Shown here: piece by piece, positions 4,909 to 63,556 of the stretch | Position numbering within the stretch: position 1 is the stretch's first letter | Layout: each line of letters begins with the position of its first letter | Assembly (NCBI GenBank): GCA_016703605.1 | Contig: JADJBU010000008.1 | Coordinates: 91,819 to 155,818, forward strand | Origin: Candidatus Villigracilis adiacens | GTDB taxonomy: Bacteria > Chloroflexota > Anaerolineae > Anaerolineales > Villigracilaceae | Reading direction: 5' to 3' | DNA length: 64,000 bases | Made by a program: the position numbers and the translations under genes | Notes under the pieces: model-generated | The model's input: the letters and a program-made list of their open reading frames with translations, nothing else | Databases searched by the model: none | What the model was told of the DNA's origin: nothing

Positions 4909-5700
4909 TCACTCCCCCTTCATCCCCATCTGCACGCCCATGATATTGAAACCCGAATCCACGTAAAGGATTTCGCCGGTGATCCGCTTCGAGAGGTCTG
5001 AAGCCAAAAACACTGCCGCGTCGCCCACGTCGTCAATCGTCACATTCTCCTGCATGGGAGACATATCCGCAAAGTGCTTGTACATATCGCGGAAACCGCC
5101 CACGCCCGCCGCCGCCAATGTGCGGATCGCGCCCGCCGAAATCGCATTGACGCGAATCTTCTTCGGTCCCAAATCATATGCCAGGTAGCGGGTGGAAGAT
5201 TCCAACGCCGCCTTCGCCACGCCCATTACGTTGTAGTGGGGGGCAACCTTCACCGCTCCCGACCCATAGGTCAGGCACATGATCGAGCCGCCTTCGTTCA
5301 TAACGGGCAGGAAGGCATTCGTCAACGCCACAAAGGAAAAGACCGAAATATCCAGCGCGTTCTTGAACCCATCCCGGCTGGTTTGATGATACGGCTTGCT
5401 CAACTCGTCGCGCCCCGCGAAGGCAATCGAATGGACGAGGATATCGATCTTCCCAAAATGTTTCGCCGCGCTTTCTGCCGCCGCCGCAATCTGATCGTCC
5501 TTCGTCACATCGCATTCCTCGACCCACTTGCAGTCCACTTTTTCAGCGAGCGGTTTTACGCGCCGTTCGAGCATCTCGCCCGCATAGCTGATGCCGATAT
5601 TCGCGCCTTCGCGCTTGAACGCCTGCGTAATTCCCCATGCAATTGATTTGTCGTTCGCCAGCCCAAAGACCAGCGCGTTCTTGCCTTCAAGTAAACCCAT
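4909..5700 (-). CDS. fabI: Enoyl-ACP reductase FabI
   Basis: GLANDKSIAWGI, LVHSIAFA, YNVMGVAKAALES, RVNAISAGAIRTLA. Confidence 0.95.
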   Translation of the reverse strand: MGLLEGKNALVFGLANDKSIAWGITQAFKREGANIGISYAGEMLERRVKPLAEKVDCKWVEECDVTKDDQIAAAAESAAKHFGKIDILVHSIAFAGRDELSKPYHQTSRDGFKNALDISVFSFVALTNAFLPVMNEGGSIMCLTYGSGAVKVAPHYNVMGVAKAALESSTRYLAYDLGPKKIRVNAISAGAIRTLAAAGVGGFRDMYKHFADMSPMQENVTIDDVGDAAVFLASDLSKRITGEILYVDSGFNIMGVQMGMKGE

Positions 5701-5763: not shown

Positions 5764-6372
5764 CTACGCCAAATTAATCTTCCAATTTTTTACAACAAAC
5801 CGCCACGGCTTGGAAAACCACGGCTCCGGTGTCTTATTTAACCCCACACGGGGACTAATCGTCACGCTTTTATCGGGGACTTTAACCCCCGCCTCGATCC
5901 ATAGACCTGAGCCTGATTCCGTTAAATCGGCATAATTCTCGCGGATGGTGATTCCCAGCGCCTGAGTCAGTTTCCCCGGACCGAACGTATCCCGCCCCTG
6001 ACGGCGCTTCATCATCACCTCCACGCCTTCCACGGGCTGAATCGCGCGGATCAACACCGCCGCCGGGAAGCCCTCCCGCTCGGTGACGACGTTGAACATC
6101 CAATGATTGCCGTATGTGAAATAAATGTATGCGTGTCCCGGCTCGCCGTACATGGGATCGGTGCGCTTCGTCCGCCCGGCTTTGGCGTGGCAGGCAAGGT
6201 CTTCCTCGCCGATATAACCTTCGGTCTCGGTGATGAGTCCCGCCAGTGTTTTGCCGCGCGAAATATAGACCAGCCGCGCCCCAAGCAATTCGCGGGCGAC
6301 GGTCAGCGTGGGACGGTTGTAGAATTTGCGGGGGAGTGGAAGAGATTTGACCACGGAGATCACAGAAGACAC
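5764..6372 (-). CDS. mpg: DNA-3-methyladenine glycosylase (Mpg/AAG family)
   Basis: VARELLG, ITETEGY, YIYFTYGNH, AVLIRAIQP, GPGKLTQALGI, PRVGL, PWRF. Confidence 0.92.
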   Translation of the reverse strand: MSSVISVVKSLPLPRKFYNRPTLTVARELLGARLVYISRGKTLAGLITETEGYIGEEDLACHAKAGRTKRTDPMYGEPGHAYIYFTYGNHWMFNVVTEREGFPAAVLIRAIQPVEGVEVMMKRRQGRDTFGPGKLTQALGITIRENYADLTESGSGLWIEAGVKVPDKSVTISPRVGLNKTPEPWFSKPWRFVVKNWKINLA

Positions 6373-6379
6373 AGAGAGG
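6350..6379. repeat. Left arm of 9-mer inverted repeat flanking the GxxExxY gene
   Basis: ACCACGGAGAT CACAGAAGA CACAGAGAGG; inverted counterpart at 6814-6841. Confidence 0.8.
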
Positions 6380-6389
6380 ATTTAGAGGA

Positions 6390-6782
6390 TCAGTTAGCGA
6401 GTCTTTTAATGCCGCCGTGTTTGAGCATTTTGACGTTGAAATTCAGCAGTAAACCGATTTTTCCGCCGGAGATTTTCAAGTAGGAAAGCAGTTGTGCTTC
6501 GTGTATGGCAGCCAGACTTTCCACAGATTTTATCTCGACGATAACGGCATCGTTTACCAGCAAGTCCAATTTGTACCCGCAATCCAGGAATATGCCTTTG
6601 TATTTCAAGGGTAGTGGAACTTCTTGTAATGCTTCATATCCGCGTTGAAGTAATTCATATCTCAAACATTTGCGGTAAGCGGATTCCAGCAAGCCCGGAC
6701 CGAGGTTTCGGTGAACCTCGATTGCCGCGCCAATAATGGCTTCGGTGATCTTATTGAGTTCATCCATGCTCAATTGTTTCAT
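6390..6782 (-). CDS. GxxExxY protein (PD-(D/E)XK nuclease-like fold)
   Basis: [10 protein letters not shown] motif, [26 protein letters not shown]; AGGAG RBS before the ATG at 6782. Confidence 0.93.
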
Positions 6783-6813
6783 CGTATCTCCTTCCTGTCT
6801 CAACTCTATTAAA

Positions 6814-6841
6814 CCTCTGTGCTCTCCGTGTTCTCTGTGGT
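6814..6841. repeat. Right arm of 9-mer inverted repeat flanking the GxxExxY gene
   Basis: CCTCTGTG CTCTCCGTG TTCTCTGTGGT; reverse complement is ACCACAGAGAA CACGGAGAG CACAGAGG. Confidence 0.8.
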
Positions 6842-6846
6842 GAATC

Positions 6847-7770
6847 TTACTTGAACCGGGAGTCGCGTTGCAGCGTCAACCTTAACCCTTCCACCAGACT
6901 GATGGAAGGACTAAATCGTAGTTTTTCCTTTGCCAGGGTCAAATCCGCTTTCATGCGCGACAGCCCGCCGGAGGTCTGGGTGTTATACACGACATTGGCT
7001 TTGCTGTCGGTCACGCCCAGCACGGTGCGGATCAAATCCTTTATCGAAGTTTCGACTCCCGAGCCGACGTTGATGACCAGCCCATTCAAATTGGGGGCGG
7101 TTGAGGTGGCGAGCATGGCGCTGACCACATCGTCCACGTAGATGTAGTCGCGGGTCTGGCTCCCGTCGCCGTGAGCGACCAGCGTCCCGCCGCGCAGCGC
7201 CTGTTTGAGGTAGTGCGGCACCACAGGCGGATGCGAGGGCGGCAGGTGCTGCCCCGGCCCATACGCGTTGAAGATGCGCAAGCTGACAGTTTCAATATTC
7301 CATAAATTACCAATGGTGCGGACGTAATGCTCTGCTGCGATTTTCGAAACAGCGTACGGCGAGCGCGGGTTGGGGGTGTCGCTTTCTTTCAAACCGCCGT
7401 CGTTCATATCGCCGTAGACCGCGCCGGAGGAGGCAAGCACAACGCGTTTGACGCCCACGTCGCGCATGGCTTCCATGAGCGCCACCGTCCCGCCGACGTT
7501 TGCGGCGTTGTAGTCGCGCGGGTATAGGATCGACTCCTGGACGGAGACCCGAGCCGCGAGGTGGTAGACCACGTCCACGTCCTGGAGCAAAGTCCACAGC
7601 TTGGGGCGGTCGCCCACATCCCCGCGGGTGAAGTGAACCTCGGAAGATAAAATCCTGGGGTCGCCGGTGGAGAGATCGTCCAGCCCGCGCACTTGATGAC
7701 CCTCGCGGGCCAGATGGTTGGCAAGCGAAGAGCCGAGGAATCCCGCGGCTCCGGTAATGAGAAAGTTCAT
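6847..7770 (-). CDS. NAD-dependent nucleotide-sugar epimerase/dehydratase (extended SDR)
   Basis: [20 protein letters not shown] (YxxxK), [19 protein letters not shown]. Confidence 0.9.
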
Positions 7771-32770: not shown

Positions 32771-33718
32771 ATGCCCTGCTCCCTCATCATCCGCGCCTAT
32801 AACGAAGCCCAGCACATCGGACGTTTGCTCGAAGGAATCAAACAGCAGACCGTCCGCGATGTGGAGGTTATTTTGGTTGATTCCGGCTCGACCGACGCGA
32901 CGGTTTCCATCGCCGAATATTTTGGCGCGAGAGTCGTCCACATCCCCCCGGCGGAGTTTACCTTTGGGAGGTCGCTCAACCTGGGGATTAAGTCCGCGAG
33001 CCGCGAATTGATCGTCATCGCCAGCGCGCATGTCTACCCCGTCTACCCCGATTGGCTGGAGACTCTGCTGCGTCCATTTCAAGATGATAGCGTGGCATTG
33101 ACCTACGGCAAACAGCGCGGACACGCAGTCTCGAAATATTCCGAGCATCAGATATTTCATCAATGGTATCCAGATGCAGGTAGTCTCGATCAAGCCACAG
33201 CATTTTGCAATAACGCCAATTCTGCCATTCGAAAAAGTTTGTGGAAGCAACATTCCTACGACGAAACGCTCACTGGCTTGGAAGATTTGGAATGGAGCAA
33301 GTGGGCGAAGGGGCAGGGACACAAGATCGCCTACGCCGCCGAAGCCGAGATCGTCCACATCCACAACGAGACGCCGCGCGGAGTCTATAACCGTTACCGC
33401 CGCGAAGCCATGGCATTGCGGAATATTTATCCTGAAACAAATTTCAATTTTTATGACTTTTTGCGCCTGACCTTTACGAACATCGTCAGCGACCTTTGGC
33501 ATTCCTCGCGCGAAGGGGTTTTCTTGAAAAGTTTTATCTCCATCTTCTGGTTTCGATTCGCCCAATTCCACGGCACCCGCATGGGACACCGCGAGACCAG
33601 CCTTGTAACGCCGCAATTGCGCGAGACGTTCTATTATGCGCGGGAACGAAAGAGGAAAGAGGAGAGAAAGAGGGATGTGGAGCCGATTCGGTATAATGAT
33701 AGGAATGGTGAATGGTGA
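32771..33718 (+). CDS. Glycosyltransferase family 2 (rhamnosyltransferase-like)
   Basis: SLIIRAYNE, VILVDSGSTD, FCNNANSAIR, EDLEW; stop codon lies within the heptamer array. Confidence 0.9.
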   Translation: MPCSLIIRAYNEAQHIGRLLEGIKQQTVRDVEVILVDSGSTDATVSIAEYFGARVVHIPPAEFTFGRSLNLGIKSASRELIVIASAHVYPVYPDWLETLLRPFQDDSVALTYGKQRGHAVSKYSEHQIFHQWYPDAGSLDQATAFCNNANSAIRKSLWKQHSYDETLTGLEDLEWSKWAKGQGHKIAYAAEAEIVHIHNETPRGVYNRYRREAMALRNIYPETNFNFYDFLRLTFTNIVSDLWHSSREGVFLKSFISIFWFRFAQFHGTRMGHRETSLVTPQLRETFYYARERKRKEERKRDVEPIRYNDRNGEW

Positions 33719-33787
33719 ATGGTGAATGGTGAATGGTGAATGGTGAATGGTGAATAGGTAATAGTGAATAGTGAATAGGTAATGGTG
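33704..33787 (+). repeat. Heptamer array x12 upstream of the four-helix-bundle gene
   Basis: (AATGGTG)7 AATAGGT AATAGTG AATAGTG AATAGGT AATGGTG. Confidence 0.95.
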
Positions 33788-33801
33788 AACAGGAGTTTGA
33801 T

Positions 33802-34251
33802 GTGAGCAGCGATAATATTCAAGGGTTGGAGACATTGGAGACTTGGAAAAAAGCAAGGGCATTTTCGCTTGTTGTTTACAAGGAAGTTCTGCCGCAATTG
33901 CCTGCTGATGAGAAATGGCATTTGAATCAGCAAATTCGACGTTCCGCTCAAAGCGTCCCAGCCAATCTTGCCGAGGGACATGGACGATTTTATTATCAAG
34001 ACAACGTCCGTTTTTGCTATATCGCTCGCGGCTCGCTGACAGAGACCTACACTCACCTTCTTCTTGCTCGTGACCTGGGATATATTTCAAGCGGACTCTT
34101 TGATCGTCTGAAAAGTCAAATCGAAGAACTCATTCGAATTATCAATGGGTACATCGCCTATTTGAAACGTTCTAAACGCGGCGAAAAAGAACCCGGAGCC
34201 AATTACGCTGTTCGCGATGAATCATCAGAGTATTTGACTGAAGATATCTAA
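33802..34251 (+). CDS. Four-helix-bundle protein (23S rRNA IVS protein / Avd-like family)
   Basis: LETWKKA, LPADEKWHLNQQIRRSAQSVPANLAEGHGR, YIARGSLTET, ARDLGYI; AGGAG RBS then GTG. Confidence 0.93.
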   Translation: MSSDNIQGLETLETWKKARAFSLVVYKEVLPQLPADEKWHLNQQIRRSAQSVPANLAEGHGRFYYQDNVRFCYIARGSLTETYTHLLLARDLGYISSGLFDRLKSQIEELIRIINGYIAYLKRSKRGEKEPGANYAVRDESSEYLTEDI

Positions 34252-34256
34252 TCTCC

Positions 34257-34326
34257 CCCTATTTCCCTATTCCCTATCCCCTATCCCCCATTCCCTATTC
34301 CCTATCCCCCATTCCCCATTCACTAT
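34257..34326 (+). repeat. Inverted heptamer array (about 10 units) downstream of the four-helix-bundle gene
   Basis: TCCCTAT/CCCCTAT/CCCCCAT/TCCCCAT/TCACTAT units, complementary (about 6/7 with G-U) to the upstream ATGGTGA/ATAGTGA units. Confidence 0.92.
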
Positions 34327-34334
34327 TTCTCCCC

Positions 34335-40598: not shown

Positions 40599-40766
40599 TT
40601 TCACAAGATAGCCCATGATTATCTGAATACCACAATCGGCGCGAAGCCGAATTTCGACGTAAAATATACGATAATCCCAAGAAAGGTTCACTGACTTGGA
40701 TCAGCCCAAATCCGTAACCCTTAATCTCTTTCCGTGGAATCCGTGTCACTCCGTGTACAAAAAACA

Positions 40767-62714: not shown

Positions 62715-63556
62715 GAGTGGTAGGCGGATTGTGATTCGTTGAGGAGCGATTCAAGTTTGGTGAAATCTTCTGAAGATAACGCAGACTCGATCTCTGCCAG
62801 TTGACTTTGCATTCCACGCAGAGCATTTAATACATTTTCGCGGTTGGATTGTAAGACGCCCAACATCATGGAAGATGATGTGCCTGCGAGTCTACTCGTG
62901 GACTTGAAGCCGGGTCCAACAAAAGGGGCGACGTCTTCGGGTGTAGTGCGTGCCAGTGCAGACGAGATCAGAAATGGCAGATGGCTTGTGGAAGCAAGGA
63001 TGCGGTCATGGTCTACGGCATCCAGCGTTTTGCCTTTGGCACCGAGGGCTTCGATGATCTGATATGCGGCAGAGATGGCGCGAGGCGATGTGCGATCCAG
63101 CGGAGTCAACAAAAAAGGCGCAGCGTAGTAAAGCGTTCTCTCTGCATTCGCCAGCGAAAGCTTTTCTTTGCCGCAAATGGGATGCCCGCCGATGGGGTCG
63201 AAGCGTTCAGGCAATTTTGCCATCGCTTCGACGACCAATCGTTTTGTGGAGCCCAAGTCCATGACGATGCAGGGATGGGGAATGGTAATTGGTAATTGGT
63301 CAATGAGTGTGATGATTGACTGGACTGGCGCTGACAGAATCACAACATCAACATCGGCGGGGAGGGTGGCAGGGTCGCTGTCGGCGTAGTCCACGATATG
63401 TTGGGACAGAGCAAGCTCGAGCGTGGCAGGATGCGGGTCAATTCCATAAAGAGCCGCACATTTGCCGCGCAGTCCCAATGCCAACGAGCCGCCCATCAAG
63501 CCCAATCCGATGATGGCGATTTTTGATTCGGAGAGTGTAAAGTTTATGTCTTCCAT
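62699..63556 (-). CDS. tyrA: Prephenate dehydrogenase
   Basis: [30 protein letters not shown]; start at 63556. Confidence 0.92.

Follow-up and report, generated by a model that had tools for sequence, protein, structure and literature searches.

Inverted Phased Arrays around a GxxExxY Gene of Candidatus Villigracilis adiacens: A Candidate Nuclease–Repeat System

A gene encoding a GxxExxY protein (PF13366, PDDEXK_3) in Candidatus Villigracilis adiacens is framed by two inverted arrays of three units each with a period of 9 nt, and gene-less hairpins with arms of the same design are scattered through the same genome. We analyzed this cassette within a window of 64,000 nt (assembly GCA_016703605.1, contig JADJBU010000008.1, positions 91,819–155,818 of the forward strand); coordinates refer to the window unless a contig (C-number) of the source genome, labeled G000, is given, and other G- and L-numbers denote compared genomes and loci. 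On balance, we favor the reading that the segment 6350–6841 is a nuclease with its cognate repeat, resembling the systems formed by repetitive extragenic palindromic (REP) elements with REP-associated tyrosine transposases (RAYT) or by NTS repeats with Ssn nucleases. It is a member of neither, because its protein does not belong to the class that defines either of them. We found no description of such a GxxExxY–repeat system in the literature and no publication that ties GxxExxY to flanking repeats.

The cassette and its protein

The cassette and the genes on either side of it comprise the following features.

6814–6841, minus strand: 5′ gene-proximal arm, reading ACCACAGAG-AA-CACGGAG-AG-CACAGAG-G on the gene strand; three 9-nt units with the core CACRGAG
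6783–6813, minus strand: leader from the arm to the start codon (TTTAATAGAGTTGAGACAGGAAGGAGATACG), read directly from the sequence
6390–6782, minus strand: GxxExxY gene of 130 amino acids, PF13366/TIGR04256 (profile matches, conserved motif residues, AlphaFold2 model, and Foldseek)
6350–6379, plus strand: 3′ arm, opposite in orientation to the 5′ arm, reading ACCACGGAG-AT-CACAGAA-GA-CACAGAG-AGG on the plus strand
5764–6372, minus strand: mpg (methylpurine-DNA glycosylase), the downstream host gene, whose first codons come from the 3′ arm
6847–7770, minus strand: NAD-dependent epimerase/dehydratase, the upstream host gene
4909–5700, minus strand: fabI

The whole 3′ arm (6350–6379, plus strand) is ACCACGGAGATCACAGAAGACACAGAGAGG, and the whole 5′ arm (reverse complement of 6814–6841) is ACCACAGAGAACACGGAGAGCACAGAGG; in each, three units starting with CAC lie at offsets 2, 11, and 20, which gives the period of 9, and the outer end of the arms is TCACCAC. 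A repeat search reported the pair as 30-nt arms that are 77% complementary and 438 nt apart. Allowing up to two mismatches, CACRGAGRRCACRGAG has four matches within the two arms and one in the rest of the 64 kb, as against a mean of 0.27 matches in the shuffled window, where none of 100 shuffles reached five. On rereading, the inverted 9-mer arms around the gene proved to be as a preliminary description of this DNA had given them, in position and in wording, as did the start of one arm 5 nt (GATTC) past the epimerase stop codon and the co-orientation of the cassette within the epimerase-mpg-fabI run, where all four genes lie on the minus strand and the cassette is tightly packed in the operon. 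The AGATT that it placed ahead of both arms is, however, replaced in orthologous cassettes by other sequences (TTTTTT in G022, TCTT in G024); it is therefore either chance or a local extension of the inverted repeat, and we rejected it both as a part of the element and as a target duplication.

The 3′ arm reaches into mpg. All three candidate GTG start codons (6372, 6363, and 6354) lie within this arm, and MSSVISVVKS, which the preliminary description had taken as the encoded N-terminus, is the longest reading. In all three cassette-bearing genomes of the same genus in our first sample (G000, G022, and G024), the mpg frame passes through the GTG of the arm-terminal GTGGT, whereas relatives with an empty site use an ATG of their own; the cassette now supplies the start codon of mpg. 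The leader contains AAGGAG about 7 nt ahead of the GxxExxY ATG, a Shine-Dalgarno-like sequence that may serve its translation. Rfam found no rRNA near the cassette, which sits between protein-coding genes and not in an rRNA helix, and there are no cas genes near it.

The open reading frame (ORF) at 6390–6782 matches PF13366 (E = 2.8e-40, 137.8 bits against a cut-off of 22), and no other Pfam family, as well as TIGR04256 GxxExxY (E = 1.1e-42, 145 bits against a cut-off of 35). The name-giving motif is present as G30-L-L-E33-S-A-Y36. Across 34 homologous sequences H24, D73, E83, K85, Q97, and Y101 are invariant, and E33, Y36, and H94 are kept in at least 90%. We take E33, D73, E83-x-K85, and Q97-xxx-Y101 to be the E/D/ExK/QxxxY motif set of RecB/Cas4-type nucleases. 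C39 is the only invariant cysteine in these sequences, so that the four-cysteine iron–sulfur cluster of Cas4 proper is lacking. The AlphaFold2 model has a pLDDT of 95.5, and the best folds that Foldseek found for it in the PDB are Cas4 SSO0001, lambda exonuclease, LHK-Exo, and the AdnAB nuclease, at an E value of only about 4e-3 and a TM score of about 0.48. A sequence search of the PDB found no relative and a PHROGs search no match; PADLOC gave a weak match to a Cas4b profile (E = 0.0023). From motifs and model, we predict that the protein is a minimal Cas4/RecB-like PD-(D/E)XK nuclease of active appearance. Its amino acid divergence is 0.88 of that of the epimerase, Mpg, and FabI. The family is large, with 21,228 clusters at 50% identity (E ≤ 1e-3), and includes proteins of 266–295 amino acids with two tandem GxxExxY domains (P0121–P0130 and others), which suggests that the single-domain protein probably works as a dimer. 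A 2012 survey of PD-(D/E)XK proteins listed the function of GxxExxY/PDDEXK_3 as unknown.

Arms of related genes and dispersed hairpins

Framing by inverted arrays is a feature of the gene family and not of one copy. All five PF13366 genes of G000 are flanked by inverted arrays with a period of about 9, and the core differs from gene to gene (CACRGAG, CACRAAGG, CGCGAAW, a GATT type, and a truncated fifth), and four of these paralogues share 36–42% identity and retain D...ExK. Across the phylum, a significant flanking inverted repeat was found at 22 of 32 PF13366 loci and at 2 of 60 random ORFs of similar size (Fisher p = 1e-11), so that arms are clearly more frequent at GxxExxY genes than elsewhere. 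Homologues of 57–92% identity have CRCNGAG-type arms of three to four units with ends of the form (T)CACCAC...GTGGTG(A), and they come from Chloroflexota, Acidobacteriota, Planctomycetota, Chlamydiota, Armatimonadota, Ignavibacteria, Geobacteraceae, and Saprospiraceae, that is, from at least eight phyla; the arm cores are conserved across phyla as sequence, beyond mere pairing. One of the paralogues (G000 C22:852178–852627, L002) lies between a gene ending in ...LFRTLLHQLMTGQVR and a gene starting with MPKPGEHKTVQTRILQYAQDIGW, which to the eye look like hsdS and hsdR of a type I restriction–modification system.

To determine how such arrays are distributed, we defined an array as three phased units matched by a regular expression and used block shuffles of the genome as the null. 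G000 contains at least 192 three-unit arrays, compared with 3–8 in the shuffles, and the main families (CACNAAG, 75; CACNGAG, 48; CGCNGAT/AAT, 29; CGCNAAG, 16) resemble the arms of the four full-length paralogues. Where arrays are paired, 43 pairs are convergent and none divergent (p = 2e-13), with loops mostly of 6–40 nt. Most convergent pairs are gene-less hairpins with conserved termini, whereas the two whose loops are long, at 438 and 620 nt, are the gene-bearing cassettes. About 100 gene-less hairpins are scattered over the intergenic spacers of G000, and arrays are depleted in long open frames (49% vs. 91% for random sites). The minimal element of arms plus gene that the preliminary description proposed is hence too narrow: the cassette is part of a population that includes some 100 hairpins without a gene in each genome. 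The window also has a solitary array of three units, CACGGAGTGACACGGATTCCACGGAA, on the minus strand at 40730–40755, for which the strict regular expression found no partner array.

Arrays and genes also co-occur among genomes. PF13366 is carried by 35 of the 42 genomes with at least 20 arrays (83%) and by 30 of the 259 others in the same set of 301 genomes of the phylum (p = 5e-21), and the corresponding numbers of genera, counted from the genome tables, are about 17 of 20 and 19 of 151. At the level of repeat type, at least five GAG-type arrays are found in 10 of 19 genomes with a homologue of at least 55% identity and in 10 of 46 without one (p = 0.02), and in G088 and G228 the arrays of the genome agree with the arms of its gene, which are of the AAG and AAT types. 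In G107, CACAGAG-type arrays lie 2–60 nt from the ends of dozens of contigs. Arrays are often found at the ends of contigs, and metagenome-assembled genomes (MAGs) may for this reason lack genes that have such repeats on both sides; the hairpins break short-read assemblies and so may hide gene-bearing copies.

These data suggest a mechanism in outline. The cassette would be the gene-bearing member of a repeat family, with the nuclease gene in the loop between inverted three-unit arms, and the gene-less hairpins with the same arm design would be its other members. The nuclease, probably dimeric, would recognize the phased cores and nick or cut at or near the arms, and its action would copy, move, or maintain the hairpin population and, rarely, the cassette itself. 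We infer that the protein may recognize its own repeat, as the preliminary description had supposed, and that it may bind or cut the repeats and drive their spread.

A second small-ORF family in the same genome has a similar design, as was stated in the preliminary description. Eight of the ten PF05635 genes of G000, which encode four-helix-bundle proteins of the 23S rRNA intervening sequence type, lie between inverted arrays reported by the tandem repeat program TRF, with a period of 7 (8 in one case) and up to 14 units. One of these cassettes is in the window.

33703–34327, plus strand: cassette with a four-helix-bundle PF05635 gene at about 33829–34149, between GAATGGT ×12 (33703–33789) and CCCTATT ×10 (34257–34327)

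The other bracketed loci are C2:120321–120832, C2:522574–523110, C24:28584–29046, C22:577407–578036, C22:144909–145455, C4:219352–219879, and C26:692811–693337. Inverted arrays of heptamers or octamers are also found around entire housekeeping genes, namely a DAHP synthase-like gene (aroF) and ilvC-, leuD-, and pheS-like genes, at C8:155101–156487 (window position 63283 to beyond its end), C8:7773–8931, C8:12371–13023, and C2:523087–524213, and there the ends of the proteins are translated from the arrays, with, for example, an 11-residue stretch at both ends.

The relationship of PF05635 to rRNA intervening sequences raises the question of whether the arms act as RNA. The arms could pair in the operon transcript, an RNase III-like cut would then release or insulate the mRNA of the cassette and so make the insertion tolerable, and selection would act on the arms as an RNA helix. 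In agreement with this, the 526-nt cassette folds as RNA, at minimum free energy, with its arms paired and the entire ORF enclosed between them (z = −2.1), it has the orientation of its operon and is tightly packed there, the sister design surrounds genes of a family named after 23S rRNA intervening sequences, and the gene-less hairpins reach about −33 kcal/mol on either strand, with 13 of 40 lying between convergent genes. However, the pattern of pairing is the opposite of what compensatory change would leave, and compensatory pairing between the arms was rejected. Core positions 1–3 and 5–7 match between the arms of a hairpin, whereas complementarity at core position 4 is 0.5 of 3 within an element as compared with 1.23 for randomly paired arms of the same family, and that of the spacers is 0.88 of 4 as compared with 1.45 (p ≤ 0.0005 for both). 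Because the variable positions pair less within than between elements, each element has an A arm and a B arm, and reading of the cores by a protein is favored over selection for stem stability; the copies appear to descend from asymmetric masters in which stem perfection is not what is conserved. The better-folding strand shows no bias toward the sense strand (12 vs. 8, not significant), which led us to reject strand-specific RNA selection on the hairpins. An RNA device also leaves unexplained why cores are kept as sequence across phyla, why arrays co-occur with the nuclease gene, and why identical copies with target duplications exist (see below), and we regard it as quite improbable.

Residence at one site and movement at others

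The synteny epimerase-mpg-fabI is conserved across the genus, and it was therefore possible to follow the cassette at one orthologous site. Among 22 genomes of the same genus in the first sample, the cassette is present in three, another insert in one, and a short spacer in the remaining 18; six of 20 further congeners carry the cassette, and it is absent from the other 14. In a tree of concatenated epimerase, Mpg, and FabI from 37 loci, 18 with and 19 without the cassette, the cassette state requires 14 changes, at least six of which are forced by well-supported branches, and all three outgroup loci carry the cassette. The gene is thus far from constant at this site. Three orthologous copies (L096, L099, and L100) have a single in-frame stop each and are otherwise well conserved; the stops could reflect decay or sequencing error. 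No CACAGAG hairpin is found at the empty orthologous sites; phased hairpins of other kinds, for instance GTTTNAAC octamers, frequently take up their short spacers. Gene-less palindromes of 8-nt units (GTTTGAAC, GTTTAAAC, and similar) occupy the empty sites L010, L011, L012, L017, L019, L222, and L229. G018 and G340 have an insert of about 650 nt at the epimerase|mpg site, which, from its translation read by eye, appears to encode a LuxR/GerE-type helix-turn-helix protein. The interval from the stop codon of the epimerase gene to the start of mpg attracts such elements.

Elsewhere, there are signs of movement. In Chloroflexi bacterium OLB14 and other assemblies, a DUF4910/M28 peptidase gene and a CTP_transf_3 gene flank a cassette of 88–91% identity that has the same arms, and OLB14 (G022) has the epimerase|mpg copy as well. 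The DUF4910|CTP_transf_3 junction of G000 (C2:720730–721075) holds an ORF of about 90 amino acids encoding a hydrophobic protein (MVVVTFIFAFALAF...); as a different small gene is present there, we rejected it as an empty site for defining the ends of the cassette. At the conserved prfA|prmC junction (G000 C6:50847–50903; L181–L210), the hairpin belongs to the CACNGAG family in G000 and G024, to the CGCNAAG family in G007, and to the CACNAAG family in G012, and in at least ten congeners there is no such hairpin but a GC-rich terminator-like hairpin only, or the genes overlap. Hairpin families thus turn over at a single orthologous site.

In G024, an insertion of 133 nt, which seven intact orthologues lack, splits the orthologous GxxExxY gene (L022:2308–2440; G024:C53:7945–8073). 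The insert is a 129-nt palindromic element with a CGCWGAW nonamer hairpin at its center, and the genome contains three copies of 99–100% identity at unrelated loci (also L233 and L235), together with about 35 related copies. Direct 4-bp duplications flank all three copies (ATTA/ATTA, AATA/AATA, and AATA/AATA). Recent transposition of a hairpin with target duplications has therefore taken place in G024, in a sister family. One of the approximately ten PF13366 genes of G024 has arms with the same termini as the 129-nt element (ATCG-GGACGC...CAGCGTCC-AAAAA). A fourth copy of the element holds a nested GC-rich hairpin insert. The Waddliaceae MAG CAVVNU01 (L112–L142) contains more than 30 identical GxxExxY cassettes with CACAGAG/CACCGAG arms; their identity runs at least 170–200 nt past both arms, and because the repeated unit, a larger multicopy element, extends well beyond the arms, we rejected these copies as proof of autonomous transposition.

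Several observations weigh against a nuclease that spreads its own repeat. At the epimerase|mpg site, GxxExxY distance tracks flank distance (r = 0.81 for amino acids; r = 0.49 for ingroup nucleotides, Mantel p = 0.0005) and the mean nucleotide distances are equal (0.228 vs. 0.224), so that the gene has co-diverged with its flanks and the copy in the window shows no sign of a recent move; no direct repeat or target-site duplication is found at the ends of the window cassette either. In G024 the unit that moves extends past the arrays into outer inverted repeats and may consequently be a larger miniature inverted-repeat transposable element (MITE) served by another enzyme. A 4-bp target duplication is typical of ordinary transposases, and we know of no lone PD-(D/E)XK nuclease of 130 amino acids that transposes. 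Seven array-rich genomes, several of them incomplete MAGs, have no detected PF13366. In G055, G065, G046, G095, and G156, GAG arrays are present and the genes that we retrieved are armed otherwise; with these five mismatching genomes and the 10 of 19 versus 10 of 46 given above, protein clade and repeat type appear to match only in part, and a strict rule of one repeat type per clade received partial support only.

Because the cassette is scattered on the host tree and yet has diverged in step with its flanks, we consider it an old resident that is often lost. The simplest reading of the site, based on these comparisons, is that the cassette has been inherited vertically for a long time under purifying selection and has been lost or replaced many times; recent horizontal spread as the main process was rejected on the agreement of distances. 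The suggestion in the preliminary description of a class of mobile elements therefore stands as far as mobility of such elements is concerned, given the second site, the turnover of hairpins, and the identical copies with target duplications, and falls for a recent jump into the epimerase|mpg site.

The precise site of presence and absence, scattered on the host tree, would also be expected of a free-standing homing endonuclease gene that cuts the empty epimerase|mpg junction and is copied in by repair, the arms being incidental, and PD-(D/E)XK homing enzymes such as I-Ssp6803I exist. However, none of the flank segments groups by presence or absence of the cassette, in a comparison whose synonymous sites are nearly saturated, and homing with co-conversion appears improbable for this reason. 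Further, cassette distance follows flank distance, the arms are strongly conserved and also present without the gene, and the same cassette is found at an unrelated second site, all of which makes homing very improbable.

More serious is the possibility that the hairpins are independent repeats, spread by a host function or another transposase, into whose loops GxxExxY genes were inserted or captured, or that the protein processes or restrains the repeats for the host without mobilizing them. The array-rich genomes in which the matching gene was not detected, the ordinary housekeeping genes bracketed by heptamer arrays in G000, the MITE-like outer repeats and 4-bp duplication in G024, the Waddliaceae copies that multiply only as passengers of a larger repeat, and the other hairpin arrays at empty epimerase|mpg sites all agree with it. 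It does not readily account for CACAGAG-type arms that accompany one protein clade in at least eight phyla and at two sites, for the lack of a CACAGAG hairpin at empty orthologous sites, for the arm type that each paralogue has of its own, or for the presence of the gene in 83% of array-rich genomes. We consider a landing-pad or passenger relationship of this kind unlikely, though less so than the RNA device, and retain the partnership of nuclease and cognate repeat as our preferred reading.

Significance and relation to known systems

If the nuclease acts on the phased repeats that flank it, the very large GxxExxY/PDDEXK_3 family would gain a function, many of the bacterial hairpin repeats that break MAG assemblies would be explained, a third superfamily would join the known nuclease–repeat partnerships, and a set of small nucleases would become available whose specificity is apparently written in a readable 7-nt core. 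Locally, the cassette illustrates that such an element can persist for long inside an operon, even donating a start codon to a DNA-repair gene. A more general proposal, which we put forward tentatively and with clearly less confidence than the reading of the segment itself, is that GxxExxY proteins are the trans-acting nucleases of a pan-bacterial, so far undescribed class of phased-repeat hairpins. Each paralogue would read and cut its own 7-nt core, present three times per arm in a 9-nt phase, and thereby mobilize or maintain the hairpins and its own cassette, in what would be a third independent nuclease–repeat symbiosis beside RAYT/REP and Ssn/NTS, with reprogrammable specificity and with the four-helix-bundle/heptamer cassettes as a parallel.

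Several known systems share parts of this design. With MITEs and insertion sequences, the cassette shares terminal inverted repeats and many gene-less copies, and the related element in G024 has 4-bp duplications; in contrast to them, it contains no recognizable transposase (DDE, HUH, or serine/tyrosine recombinase), its sole ORF encoding a PD-(D/E)XK nuclease, and the gene-bearing copy is old, present once per family, and in the window free of a target duplication. Like intervening sequences of 23S rRNA with a PF05635 ORF, it is a small ORF within inverted arms that are able to pair in the transcript, but it resides in a protein-coding operon instead of rRNA and its arms show no compensatory pairing. 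Cas4/RecB nucleases (SSO0001, PDB 4ic1; lambda exonuclease) provide the best structural matches, the E, D, ExK, and QxxxY motifs, and the weak Cas4b profile match, whereas GxxExxY proteins are half the size and have neither the iron–sulfur cysteine cluster nor a CRISPR context.

The closest parallels are the two nuclease–repeat partnerships. For Ssn nucleases (GIY-YIG, cd10448) and their NTS/SRM repeats, cleavage of single-stranded DNA and an effect on transformation have been demonstrated, and the gene is present in 81% of repeat-rich genomes (PMC11893778, 2025), a proportion close to the 83% (35 of 42) found here. In both systems a small stand-alone nuclease gene is framed by a dispersed hairpin repeat, on which Ssn acts and the GxxExxY protein may act, and homologues have diverged specificities; the nuclease is GIY-YIG there and PD-(D/E)XK here, with PF13366 as its sole Pfam match, and the repeat is a single hairpin there and a phased three-unit array here. 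REP/REPIN elements with their RAYTs (PMC3116915, PMC3337134, PMC3733652) differ in that the enzyme is of the HUH/Y1 IS200-like (IS200/IS605 TnpA-like) type and the repeat a single GTAG/CGTC-tagged palindrome in place of the three phased units of about 9 nt in each arm here, where the two arms differ systematically at variable positions; the system described here is known from sequence alone. In its organization, however, the GxxExxY cassette resembles the RAYT systems: the gene is present in one or few copies flanked by inverted copies of a short repeat, the same repeat is dispersed as tens to hundreds of intergenic hairpin doublets, several gene/repeat pairs can exist within one genome, inheritance is vertical over long times, and gene and repeat co-occur across genomes.

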